DNA from: Anaerolineales bacterium
GTDB taxonomy: Bacteria > Chloroflexota > Anaerolineae > Anaerolineales > Villigracilaceae
Assembly (NCBI GenBank): GCA_016789305.1
Contig: JAEURJ010000023.1
Location: forward strand, 732,084 to 796,083
DNA: 64,000 bases
Reading direction: 5' to 3'
Shown here piece after piece: positions 9,645-13,757 of this stretch. Below the pieces are notes generated by a model, which was not told the DNA's origin, ran no database searches, and saw only the letters and a list, made by a program, of their open reading frames with translations. The stretch's first letter is position 1; every line of letters starts with the position of its first letter. A program made the position numbers and the translations under genes.

Positions 9645-10625
9645 TTATGCCTTGCCCAACACCATCGCCAGCAACGCCATTCTCACATACAAACCATATT
9701 CCATCTGACGGAAATACGCGGCGCGCGGATCGTCGTCAAAACTTTCACTGATCTCGCCCACGCGCGGCAGCGGATGCATAACAGCCATTTCCTTCTTCGC
9801 GGCTTTCATGATCTCGGGGTCGATCACATACGCGCCCTTGACCTTTTCATAGTCGGCGGGGTCTTCGAAACGTTCCTTTTGCACGCGGGTCACGTATAGA
9901 ATATCGGTGTCAGGCAAAACTTTTTCAAGCGAAGAATATTCGGCCTGCGGCACCTTCTTTTCAGCCACTTCGTCCATCACTTCCTTTGGCATCTTCAAAA
10001 TATCGGGAGAGACATAATTCAATTTGATGTTCTTGAAGTTCGAAAGCAAACGTGCCAGCGAATGGACAGTGCGTCCATACTTGAGATCGCCAAGCATGGT
10101 GACGTTCAAATTATCGAGCCGCCCGAGTTCCTCCATGATCGTGAAGGCATCGAGCAGCGCCTGCGTGGGATGTTCGCCGACTCCGTCGCCTGCGTTGATC
10201 ACGGGTTTCTTCGCTGCCTTCGCCGCGATGGCCGCCGAGCCCGTTTCGGGATGGCGCAGCACGATCACATCGGCATAACATTCAAGCGTGCGGATCGTAT
10301 CTGGCAGGCTCTCGCCCTTCGACACCGATGAATATTTCACTTCGCTGATCGGGATGACCGAGCCGCCGAGCCGTTCCATGGCTGCGGTGAACGAGGATGA
10401 TGTTCTGGTGGATGGTTCGTAAAACAGGTTCGCGAGAATTTTTCCCTTCAACAGATCGAACGTTCCGATGCGCTCGACCATGCCGCGCATTTCGTGTGCT
10501 ACGCCGAACACGTATTCGAGATTTTCGCGGTTGAACTGTTTGACGGAAAGAATGTCCTTGCCGTACCACTCTGCGTTCTTGTTCTCGCCGAATGGCAGGT
10601 GTGGGGATGTGGATTGAGTGGGCAT
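9645..10625 (-). CDS. pyrB: aspartate carbamoyltransferase catalytic subunit
   Basis: [45 protein letters not shown]. Confidence 0.97.
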
Positions 10626-10628
10626 TGA

Positions 10629-10675
10629 TTAGTCTCCTGGTCTTTTAGTCTGATAGTTTGTTGTCTTTTAGTTTG
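10629..10675. repeat. TAGTC/GACTA 8-mer tandem array upstream of pyrB
   Basis: TTAGTCTC/CTGGTCTT/TTAGTCTG/ATAGTTTG/TTGTCTT/TTAGTTTG. Confidence 0.7.
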
Positions 10676-10677
10676 GT

Positions 10678-10716
10678 GGTCGAGTAGCCCCGTGTTTGTC
10701 GGGGCGTATCGAGACC
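10678..10716. repeat. REP-like element GGTCGAGTAG...GTATCGAGACC
   Basis: Imperfect outer inverted repeat with inner stem GCCCCG-N7-CGGGGC. Confidence 0.6.
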
Positions 10717-10848
10717 TGATCGGGACTCTGGTTGCACGCTGGCAACGAATCTCGTTTAATCACATGGTTCACGCTTGAGCGTATCCCTGTTCGCTTCTTA
10801 CTACGGGTGAGTTGGTTCTGTTTCGATGATTCTCTTCTTTACTCGAAA

Positions 10849-11283
10849 TTAAAGCCCAATCTTTTTCACGAAGACAGAAAAATTGTTTTCTACTTCTCTC
10901 CAGTAATGTATTGTGTCGCCACTCCACCAATCGCTTGCAACTACTCTTGGGTCAATTGTATTTGTTCGATAATCTAGCGCTATTCCTATATCAGCGCCGG
11001 CTACTCGATTTACTGCAATAAATAATGCTTTGTCGACATCTAGCCACGGCAAATCTCGCTCGGAAGTTTTACCTCCTCTATATTCATGAAATAATTCGGA
11101 CATGTGAGAGTCGTCTGCCAAAAATCCTGAAGATTCTCTTCGCATTTCATCAAGATTGAGAAGAAAGTCGACAGGTTCTTGAAGAAAGGGGATAACCTGT
11201 TCTATTGTTTTGTCTGACGGTTGTTTCCAACGGCCGGTATTTATTAATTCAGCTAACAATGGAGGAGGTGTTAATTGATTCAT
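10849..11283 (-). CDS. SMI1/KNR4 (SUKH)-like immunity protein
   Basis: LFIAVNR...IALDYRTNTIDPRVVAS...WREVENNFSVFVKKIGL resembles a SUKH C-terminal half. Confidence 0.6.
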   Translation of the reverse strand: MNQLTPPPLLAELINTGRWKQPSDKTIEQVIPFLQEPVDFLLNLDEMRRESSGFLADDSHMSELFHEYRGGKTSERDLPWLDVDKALFIAVNRVAGADIGIALDYRTNTIDPRVVASDWWSGDTIHYWREVENNFSVFVKKIGL

Positions 11284-12341
11284 TCGGATTTCTCCTCATG
11301 CCCATGTCGGTGATGAATATCGGGCATGTGATTGTGATCATGCTCCTCGGCAGGATGTTCATGCTCGTGTGAGTGGACTCCTTTTGAGTCGTCGTGCCCA
11401 TGCGCGGAGTCGTCGTGACTGTGGCTGTGTTCATGAATCAATGCTGTGTGAAAATGCGTATGTTCATGGTTTTCATTGATGAGCAGTAGCGCGCCACCGA
11501 TCATCAAGATCGCGGCAATGATGAAGAAGAAAGATGGCAACTCACTGAAAATAACAATTGAAAGTAATACGCCCGCCAGCGGAGCAGTGCCATACAAGGC
11601 GCTGGTGCGCGCCGCACCCAGTCCACGCATGGAGCGGATGAAGAGCATTGTGCTCAATCCGTAACTGACAAATCCCAAGACCAATGTGCCGAGAATAATT
11701 TTCAGGGACGGCATTTGATTTCCAAGGAAAAATGCCAGCAGGAAAGAAAATGCCCCAGCGACCAATCCCTTCCATGCGACGATGGCGAGCGGGTCTTTGC
11801 CCGAGATGTTGCGCGTGAAATTATTGTCTACGCCCCACAGCACACAGGCAAGGATGATTCCCAGCGCGCCGAGTGAAATTCCAAACCCCTCGTTGAAATT
11901 TGTGGAGAGGAAAATGCTCGCCAAGGTGATAATGATGATCGCGGTCCATGCACGGCGGCTAATGGCTTCTTTGAAAAATAACATAGCAATGACCGTTGTC
12001 CCAACACCTTCGAAGTTCAGCAACAACGAAGCCGTGGATGCCGGAGTATTTTGCAAGCTGATCATCAAGATGATCGGAGCGAGGATTCCGCCCGAGATGA
12101 TCGCGCCCGCCAGCCATTTGATGTCTGGCGATTTGATATCCGCTTCTGCATTTTTGGATTGCATTCGCTGAGTTAATCTAAAGAGAAATGTCCCCGTGCC
12201 ACTACCGAGATAGAGAAAAGCCGCGAGATAGATCGGCGCAATATTGTCACCCAATAATAATTTTGCAATCGGTGCACTCGCCCCGAAGAAGAGGGCGGCG
12301 GTCAATGCTTGCAGGATGAACGTGAGATTGTTTGATTTCAT
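11280..12341 (-). CDS. EamA/DMT transporter with His-rich C-terminal tail
   Basis: About 10 TM helices, LLLNFEGV, WGVDNNFTR, and a C-terminal HEHTHFH...HHRHGH tail. Confidence 0.88.
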   Translation of the reverse strand: MKSNNLTFILQALTAALFFGASAPIAKLLLGDNIAPIYLAAFLYLGSGTGTFLFRLTQRMQSKNAEADIKSPDIKWLAGAIISGGILAPIILMISLQNTPASTASLLLNFEGVGTTVIAMLFFKEAISRRAWTAIIIITLASIFLSTNFNEGFGISLGALGIILACVLWGVDNNFTRNISGKDPLAIVAWKGLVAGAFSFLLAFFLGNQMPSLKIILGTLVLGFVSYGLSTMLFIRSMRGLGAARTSALYGTAPLAGVLLSIVIFSELPSFFFIIAAILMIGGALLLINENHEHTHFHTALIHEHSHSHDDSAHGHDDSKGVHSHEHEHPAEEHDHNHMPDIHHRHGHEEKSE

Positions 12342-12688
12342 TTTGCTTTTCCAAAATCAAACAAATGATTAGCCAGCGGAATGATGTTGATCAAAAATTC
12401 TTCGTAGGGATGATTACCCTTGATCACCTTGATGGCTTCATTGACCAATTCCCGCTTGCAGTTGACTTCGAGTTTGTATTCGGCAACTTCACTGATTTTC
12501 CCGATATCCCCTTCGAATGGGTTGGACCCTTCCAATGGACGGAAGTATCCCTGCACGGCGGAAAGAGCCACGCAATGATCATAATTTCCAATCCGTCCCA
12601 CGCCGATCTTCGCGAGTTCATCGCGGATCTGGAAGGCGTAATCCCGTGGGACAAAGATTTCGAGTTTTACATCAGTAAAGTTTTGCAT
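12338..12688 (-). CDS. YqfO/NIF3 central (PII/CutA-like) domain protein
   Basis: KLEIFVP, GVGRIGNYDHC, GYFRPLEGSNPFEG, HPYEE. Confidence 0.8.
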   Translation of the reverse strand: MQNFTDVKLEIFVPRDYAFQIRDELAKIGVGRIGNYDHCVALSAVQGYFRPLEGSNPFEGDIGKISEVAEYKLEVNCKRELVNEAIKVIKGNHPYEEFLINIIPLANHLFDFGKAK

Positions 12689-12689
12689 T

Positions 12690-13757
12690 TCAACGCTCTC
12701 TTACATTCCTTCCGTACCCTGCCTTGGCCAACACCTTTCCATCTTCAAAGGCTGTTTGTCCGCGTAATACAACTTTCCTGACTCTGCCTTTTACCTTCCA
12801 GCCTTCGAATGGAGTCCAGCCGCAGCGGGTGAATTGTTCGGATGCCTTGATCTCGTATGCTTCGTTTTCATCCACTTCAACCCACGTCTCCGGTTGTTCG
12901 GGGAGATTGAATATCTTTTGAGGATTAGTGTACGACTTCATCATAATATCATCTATCGTCAGTCGTCCATCACCCACTGCGGTGAGTAATAGTGGCAAGG
13001 CCGTTTCCAAACCGGGGAAGCCGGGCGGAGGATTATCCGAGTCTTTTTCTTCGATGGTATGTGGAGCGTGGTCGGTGGCGAAACAATCGATCACATCCAT
13101 GTTTTCCCATAAGGCAGCTACATCTTCCTTCATTGCCAATCGCGGACGGACCTCGCCGCGGCCCGGATGTCCGTGCGAAATGGATGGAATGTCATCCTTC
13201 GATAAAAATAAATGATGCGGACAAACTTCGCATGTGACCTTGATTCCCTTTTCTTTCGCGGCTTTGATCAATAAAACTTCTTCTTTGAGGGAAATATGCG
13301 CGATGTGAACGGGGCGATCATAGATTGCGGCGAATAAAATTGCTGCGGCCATCGTTCGACTTTCGGAATGTGCCACGAGCGGGTAATCCTTCGAGTACTT
13401 TTGGAAATGCGGCATCCAGAGAGTCATGTCATCGAGGCGGAGTTCCCCAAAGGTGGAGTCGAGGTACATCTTTAGCCCGGCAGCCGTCCCTGCGAGCGAG
13501 GCGGCGATGTCTGCGTTGTACGGCCCTGCGCCGATGTATTGTCCAAAGTCGCAGCGCGCTTTTTGTTTTGCGGCATTCAATGCGAGATCGAGAGTCGCAG
13601 AGTCAAAGATCGGCGGTTTGGTGTTTGGCATGGCAAGCACGATGGTAAATCCACCGGCCAGCGCAGCGGATGTGCCGGAGTCATAATCCTCTTTATGGGT
13701 TGCGCCAGGTTCGCGCAAATGAACGTGCGGGTCGATCAGGCCTGGAAGTTTGAGCAT
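12690..13757 (-). CDS. pyrC: dihydroorotase (CAD-like)
   Basis: [44 protein letters not shown]. Confidence 0.93.
   Translation of the reverse strand: [355 protein letters not shown]

Follow-up and report, generated by a model that had tools for sequence, protein, structure and literature searches.

Stand-alone pyrC and pyrB genes of Anaerolineae as the apparent closest prokaryotic relatives, and probable source, of the dihydroorotase-aspartate carbamoyltransferase half of CAD

Eukaryotic CAD, which combines a carbamoyl-phosphate synthetase (CPSase) with dihydroorotase (DHO, DHOase) and aspartate carbamoyltransferase (ATC, ATCase) domains, is a textbook example of enzyme fusion and serves both as a drug target and as a phylogenetic marker. 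From where did eukaryotes obtain its DHO-ATC half? The question is raised by a pyrimidine biosynthesis locus of an Anaerolineales bacterium (Chloroflexota; Anaerolineae; GenBank assembly GCA_016789305.1), in which pyrC and pyrB encode a separate DHOase and ATCase. The window, that is, the whole stretch of DNA analysed, spans 64,000 nucleotides of contig JAEURJ010000023.1. A sequence-only reading of it had proposed that both proteins are near-identical in key segments to human CAD, follow the same DHO-then-ATC order, and represent a bacterial sister lineage or horizontal transfer partner of the CAD module. We provide evidence that Anaerolineae appear to hold the closest prokaryotic relatives of the DHO-ATC half of CAD and are probably its source.

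The peptides on which that reading leaned are all present in the translations of two minus-strand open reading frames (ORFs): [79 protein letters not shown] and [11 protein letters not shown] in PyrC, and [26 protein letters not shown] and DPRAAYFRQ in PyrB. Human CAD is the top match of both proteins in the PDB (phmmer), and the near-identity claimed by that reading corresponds to 58.9% identity with the human DHOase domain and 58.6%, over 302 residues, with the ATCase domain. PyrC matches human CAD DHOase with 474 bits (2e-141), versus about 161 bits for the best solved bacterial DHOase, a non-CAD type I enzyme; thus, among solved structures, it is indeed far closer to CAD than to bacterial DHOases. 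For PyrB, human CAD ATCase (388 bits) is followed by the enzymes of Pyrococcus abyssi (344), Methanocaldococcus jannaschii (319), Escherichia coli (279), Bacillus subtilis (149) and Aquifex (84); here too, every solved bacterial enzyme is far more remote than CAD. For scale, the human ATC domain is 54% identical to the CAD ATC domains of spider-mite and Chaetomium and 64% identical to that of sponge. Reverse searches with the human DHO and ATC domains, restricted to proteins of comparable length, returned animal CAD fragments first and then stand-alone Chloroflexi/Anaerolineales proteins at 59-65% identity, mixed among insect CAD fragments.

The architecture of PyrC also follows that of CAD. 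A stop codon sits one codon before the ATG, so a longer N-terminus is impossible, and the protein combines this short N-terminus with a small adjacent domain and a full-length structural match. Its AlphaFold model (predicted local distance difference test score 92.3) superposes on human DHOase with template modelling (TM) scores of 0.97/0.95 and a root-mean-square deviation of 1.1 Å over 353 columns of 355 residues; long bacterial and archaeal DHOases are covered by the model over about 70% of their own length, with target-normalised TM of about 0.70. PyrC numbering is offset from human CAD by a constant 1460. All binuclear-zinc ligands are present and conserved across the clade (H11, H13, K96, H130, H154 (and H151), D229), with the HxH motif at H11/H13, K96 equivalent to the carbamylated lysine K1556 and E177 to E1637. 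The catalytic loop holds T102-F103, equivalent to human T1562/F1563, and at loop position 103 Phe, Tyr or His occurs only in Chloroflexota and CAD, where other short and long forms have Thr. On these grounds PyrC is predicted to be a binuclear-zinc TIM-barrel amidohydrolase of the CAD type with a C-terminal extension. It falls outside bacterial type I DHOases: the NCBIfam model TIGR00857 (pyrC_multi) matched in two stretches only, with 272.5 bits against a cut-off of 279.05, and the N-terminal beta-sandwich extension is missing. Published DHOase classifications recognize three bacterial types (I, II and III), an archaeal one, fungal inactive forms and human CAD, and place no bacterial enzyme in the type of the human domain (PMC9771888, PMC11818841).

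PyrB carries the carbamoyl-phosphate and aspartate motifs STRT, HPTQ and HPLPR and matches TIGR00670 with 367 bits (cut-off 237), as expected of an ATCase catalytic chain. The regulatory partner PyrI, which the sequence-only reading had reported missing, is not encoded anywhere in the genome (TIGR00240 without a match, controls responding), so PyrB lies outside class B ATCases and is predicted to be an unregulated catalytic chain. The genome-wide survey returned neither a second ATCase nor a type II DHOase. A second, true DHOase elsewhere in the genome was considered and rejected, since the genome has just one further cyclic amidohydrolase, and this sole paralogue scores 530 bits to TIGR02033, which marks it as a dihydropyrimidinase. 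With no other DHOase or ATCase encoded, pyrC and pyrB would have to carry steps 2 and 3 of uridine monophosphate synthesis, and we infer that their products are the working housekeeping enzymes of this bacterium. The dihydroorotase activity predicted for PyrC follows from its intact residues and its status as sole DHOase in a 99.67%-complete genome.

The resemblance to CAD ends at the CPSase. A CAD-like carAB, for which the sequence-only reading had suggested a check, is not there: CarB scores 1169 bits to E. coli CarB versus 783 to human CPS1 and is 34-42% identical to the CPSase parts of CAD, so it is an ordinary bacterial enzyme. Its gene lies about 700 kb from the pyr genes on the same contig. 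Thus, the locus does not encode a CAD multifunctional protein, as the ORFs are separate and the CPSase is not of the eukaryotic CAD/CPS type. Contamination or an assembly artefact was also rejected, as the pyr genes lie mid-contig in 826 kb of bacterial DNA (genome of 4.88 Mb in 25 contigs) and orthologues occur in dozens of Anaerolineae genomes.

Phylogenies extend the pairwise evidence. In the DHO tree (98 rows, LG+C20 with posterior mean site frequencies), short DHOases form a 100/99 clade whose nearest long relatives are three Chloroflexota sequences. Within this clade, Candidate Phyla Radiation (CPR) and other short forms branch first, followed by a Chloroflexota metagenome-assembled genome (MAG), Caldilineaceae (49-row clade, 98/81) and Caldilineales. 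The last clade (42 rows, 94/91) unites all CAD DHO domains with Anaerolineales, Aggregatilineales and Ardenticatenia, so that CAD domains and Chloroflexota short DHOases make up an exclusive group. In the ATC tree (72 rows), a 92/95 clade that includes PyrB contains all CAD ATC domains, Chloroflexota ATCs and a few CPR and Spirochaetia sequences, apart from archaeal and E. coli-type ATCases. The joined DHO+ATC tree (43 rows, 667 columns) recovers a monophyletic CAD (100/96) as sister to core Anaerolineae (100/100), with Caldilineales, another Chloroflexota lineage and Caldilineaceae as successive outgroups (100/99) and CPR outside. None of the three trees places either protein in ordinary bacterial or archaeal clades far from CAD, the outcome that the sequence-only reading had named as its refutation, and PyrC groups with CAD DHO domains in both the DHO and the joined tree. 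Sequence characters agree: STRTSSSF is common to Chloroflexota, CPR and CAD where outgroups have STRTRLSF. We therefore regard the exclusive kinship of the Anaerolineae pair and CAD DHO-ATC, as judged from sequences and trees, as solid.

The pair is widespread in the class. In a scan of one genome per prokaryotic species, short CAD-type PyrC occurred throughout Anaerolineae at 80-43% identity, in Brevefilum, Leptolinea, Thermanaerothrix, Aggregatilineales, Ardenticatenia, Caldilineales and Caldilineaceae, and a matching PyrB accompanied it at 92-60% identity. Sporadic short-PyrC matches came from MAGs labelled Acidobacteria, Proteobacteria, Spirochaetia and CPR; incorrect binning may account for some of these labels. 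Of 251 evenly sampled Chloroflexota genomes, about 30 encoded a full-length short-type PyrC, mainly in the window's own order and allied lineages.

Gene order links these bacteria to CAD as well. At 17 loci pyrB comes straight after pyrC on one strand, the frames often abutting or overlapping, and the two genes lie in this order within 534 bp of each other in 18 of 28 genomes. The remainder comprise four members of the window's family with a gap of 1.2-1.9 kb, five genomes of the same genus in which the genes are unlinked, and one, with a more distant DHOase, in which pyrB precedes pyrC; this latter arrangement, the usual one, is also that of the basal CPR relatives. As pyrC-pyrB adjacency prevails among the surveyed genomes, the ancestral state of Anaerolineae would be an adjacent operon in CAD order, with the insertion in the window coming later. 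Read along the minus strand, the window does show the claimed DHO-then-ATC order, but its pyrC and pyrB are 2064 bp and three unrelated ORFs apart, whereas the pair abuts in most relatives.

Taken together, we suggest that PyrC, PyrB and the DHO-ATC half of CAD descend from one ancestral pyrC-pyrB pair. The donor of the operon would have been an Anaerolineae-like Chloroflexota bacterium, and an early eukaryote would have fused the gained DHO-ATC to a glutamine-dependent CPSase that it already had, yielding CAD; given adjacency in CAD order, fusion of the two genes needs the loss of a stop codon only. In the window, three unrelated genes inserted as a 2-kb stretch would later have separated pyrC from pyrB. 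We consider this the best overall explanation and hold it to be probable, with appreciable room for doubt. A nested position of CAD in Chloroflexota, with transfer from bacterium to eukaryote, is favoured by the DHO and joined trees. An extended version, in which an intact operon came from Anaerolineae and the modern proteins also assemble into a linker-free scaffold of DHOase dimers and ATCase trimers like the CAD hexamer core, is possible but seems to us more doubtful than not.

Several observations weigh against this explanation. The ATC tree by itself has Chloroflexota monophyletic (100/91) in a polytomy with CAD lineages, so that the nesting, and hence the direction, comes mainly from the DHO signal. 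Approximately unbiased (AU) tests leave a bacterial clade that excludes CAD unrejected (DHO, p 0.125; joined, p 0.237) and, being non-significant, do not serve as proof that CAD is nested in Anaerolineae; because they do not reject a plain sister relationship, we can only infer the direction of transfer. Eukaryote rows are few and mostly metagenome proteins, with Tetranychus, Blyttiomyces and Mesorhabditis as the named representatives, and some rows on the eukaryote side probably come from giant viruses. Furthermore, the equivalent of human Cys1613, a residue tied to an extra (third) zinc reported for human DHOase (PMC11818841), is Ala153 in PyrC and Ala in all 120 close homologues. Cys itself is found in 16 of 18 CAD sequences and, among wider Chloroflexota sequences, in 17 of 26. 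PyrC thus departs from CAD-type DHOases at this position, and its metal site may differ from that of the human enzyme.

A competing proposal is that the two groups are simply sister lineages, in which an exclusive ancestor is shared and the copy in eukaryotes derives from a relative that is unsampled or extinct, or from the pre-eukaryotic lineage itself, and not from within Anaerolineae. The bacterial monophyly allowed by the AU tests, the reciprocal monophyly or polytomy of the ATC tree and the related pairs in CPR and Spirochaetia would all be expected under it, but the maximum-likelihood DHO and joined trees nest CAD among Chloroflexota orders, CAD and core Anaerolineae unite at 100/100, and only the Chloroflexota branch has the gene order of CAD. 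We judge this proposal unlikely, though it is the strongest competitor of the operon transfer. Of the two relationships offered by the sequence-only reading, sister lineage or transfer partner, the underlying kinship with the CAD module is therefore upheld by the trees, whereas the choice between them is not settled by the AU tests.

Transfer in the opposite direction, in which an Anaerolineae ancestor took the DHO-ATC part of a eukaryotic CAD that was later split and spread through the class, would account for an identity to animal CAD equal to that between distant animals, and a root inside CAD is compatible with the ATC tree. A screen for informative indels gave one useful character that speaks to this proposal, a CAD-specific one-residue deletion in ATC that is present in 13 of 14 CAD rows and absent from Chloroflexota, CPR and archaeal outgroups. 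Because the outgroups also lack it, the bacteria keep the ancestral state, and their genes were therefore not derived from crown CAD. Additionally, the deepest short-DHO branches are bacterial (CPR and other Chloroflexota) and the nearest long forms are from Chloroflexota, the pair extends across several orders at 43-92% identity, and no CAD-type CPSase accompanies it, making a eukaryotic origin of the bacterial genes quite improbable. Least credible of all is the absence of any special kinship, with the proteins being slow-evolving members of the long-DHOase and ATC-II families grouped with CAD by a rate or composition artefact, or eukaryotic contamination. Some rows do fail a composition test and the trees contain long branches, but the site-heterogeneous model keeps support at 100/99 to 100/100, the short N-terminus, Thr-Phe loop, SSSF motif and gene order are shared derived characters, and the genomic setting and recurrence of the genes described above speak against contamination. 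We consider the artefact and contamination readings largely refuted, and operon transfer from an Anaerolineae-like bacterium remains our preferred account.

Set beside characterized systems, the pair is CAD-like in sequence and bacterial in organization. Human CAD DHOase (PDB 4C6C and others; 'type III' in PMC11818841) shares with PyrC the short N-terminus, carbamylated Lys, HxH motif, Thr-Phe loop and C-terminal extension. PyrC, in contrast, is not fused to a CPSase on its upstream side or to a linker or ATC on its downstream side, carries three inserted residues around position 190, and has Ala at the site of the C1613S mutant structures (4C6O-Q). Similarly, human CAD ATCase (PDB 5G1N) is in the same clade as PyrB and shares the two PyrB peptides quoted above, whereas PyrB forms its own polypeptide, starts with a 20-residue N-terminal tail and retains the residue that almost every CAD ATC domain has lost. 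The DHOase-ATCase dodecamer of Aquifex aeolicus (PDB 3D6N) is likewise built of separate chains, members of the same amidohydrolase and transcarbamylase superfamilies, that can act jointly, but it and type I DHOases such as that of Bacillus anthracis (3MPG) are far more distant (148-161 bits for DHO, 84 for Aquifex ATC). Type I DHOases are about 70-90 residues longer than PyrC, with a large adjacent domain and a shorter catalytic loop (PMC9771888). Class B ATCases (P. abyssi 1ML4, M. jannaschii 2RGW, E. coli PyrBI) belong to the same ATC-II family, at 47-52% identity to PyrB, but pair with PyrI, whereas this genome has no pyrI and PyrB branches with CAD instead.

Several further sequences merit description in their own right. 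Some Anaerolineae/Ardenticatenales MAGs (L030, L034 with L107, L110) combine a CAD-like ATCase with a long type I-like DHOase that is the closest long relative of the short clade; thus, the two genes have not always stayed together. Six Anaerolineae or allied genomes (L133-L138) encode a second ATCase-like paralogue on a very long branch, 38-42% identical to PyrB, which forms its own 100/100 clade beside archaeal ATCases and is not found in the genome studied here. On the CAD side, metagenome contigs L092-L094 encode a complete 2097-residue CAD (P0124) with about 19 residues between DHO and ATC, in a dense same-strand row with a 415-residue orotidine monophosphate (OMP) decarboxylase, a glycosyltransferase 25 and a 409-residue doublet-histone protein; these contigs look like a CAD-encoding giant virus (Nucleocytoviricota) or a very compact eukaryote. 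Two further proteins within the CAD clade, P0131 (L091, 658 residues) and P0138 (728 residues), are DHO-ATC fusions without the CPSase part. In P0131 about 4 residues separate DHO and ATC, and its gene adjoins those of an eIF2/EF-Tu-like GTPase and a class Ib aminoacyl-tRNA synthetase.

Within the window, pyrC and pyrB belong to a minus-strand row of seven genes, in the order pyrC, a 116-residue ORF, an EamA transporter, a 144-residue ORF, pyrB, pyrF and a 96-residue ORF (Table 1). The three-gene insert (10849-12688, minus strand) interrupts an otherwise conserved pyrC-pyrB operon; relatives in the same family have their 1.2-1.9-kb gaps at the same site, and in most relatives the first inserted gene is missing between pyrC and pyrB. 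The EamA/DMT transporter has a long C-terminal tail rich in His, Asp and Glu, and the 144-residue protein has no Pfam or NCBIfam match. The His-rich tail, together with the faint CutA1-like match of the first inserted gene, gives a hint of metal handling by the insert. When the surroundings of the genes were scanned with Rfam for RNA elements such as a pyr attenuator, the outcome was a palindromic hairpin only, perfect in appearance, which lies between pyrB and pyrF. Since the same weak model matches both strands, we interpret it as a palindrome and not a microRNA; it may serve as a terminator or attenuator. On the plus strand, two large ORFs (493 and 402 residues) occupy 14669-17481, immediately upstream of the pyr genes. 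Judging by their motifs, they may correspond to the DUF1800/DUF1501 pair common in Planctomycetes and Chloroflexi.

Table 1. Coordinates of pyr genes and associated features in the window
Feature	Coordinates	Strand	Remarks
pyrF, type 2 OMP decarboxylase	8755..9576	minus	TIGR02127 253 bits vs cut-off 111; directly downstream of pyrB
Palindromic hairpin	9593..9632		In the 68-bp pyrB-pyrF gap; weak Rfam microRNA-model matches on both strands
pyrB, aspartate carbamoyltransferase catalytic chain, CAD-like	9645..10625	minus	326 aa; sole ATCase of genome
Inserted gene 3, 144 aa	10849..11283	minus	No family assigned
Inserted gene 2, EamA/DMT transporter	11280..12341	minus	Pfam EamA 1e-28, two stretches
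Inserted gene 1, 116 aa, faint CutA1/PII-like match	12338..12688	minus	Pfam CutA1 E 0.0013, under cut-off
pyrC, stand-alone CAD-type dihydroorotase	12690..13757	minus	355 aa; sole DHOase of genome

The enzymes described here are ordinary housekeeping proteins and do not make up a new kind of system; the novelty lies in how they are interpreted. In a 2026 preprint on how eukaryotic metabolism arose, two Chloroflexota sister groups are counted for pyrimidine metabolism, without being named (10.64898/2026.05.08.723234). Literature searches, which did not cover the 2014 Structure reference DHOase phylogeny, yielded nothing specific on bacterial CAD-type DHOases and no text that explicitly presents the pyrC-pyrB operon of Anaerolineae as equivalent to CAD DHO-ATC; the Joint Genome Institute pipeline does already name these bacterial proteins after CAD, by best match.

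The interest of the finding is evolutionary, with the addition of a possible linker-free model of the CAD core. As a whole bacterial class has free-standing orthologues, about 60% identical and in CAD order, the origin of CAD becomes directly testable, and simple bacterial proteins are on offer for the study of CAD-type catalysis, metal sites and DHO-ATC assembly. If Anaerolineae were both the donors of an intact operon and the keepers of a linker-free scaffold, a classic fusion gene of eukaryotes would have a donor that can be named, and the architecture of CAD, which is still unsolved, would gain a tractable model in bacteria.

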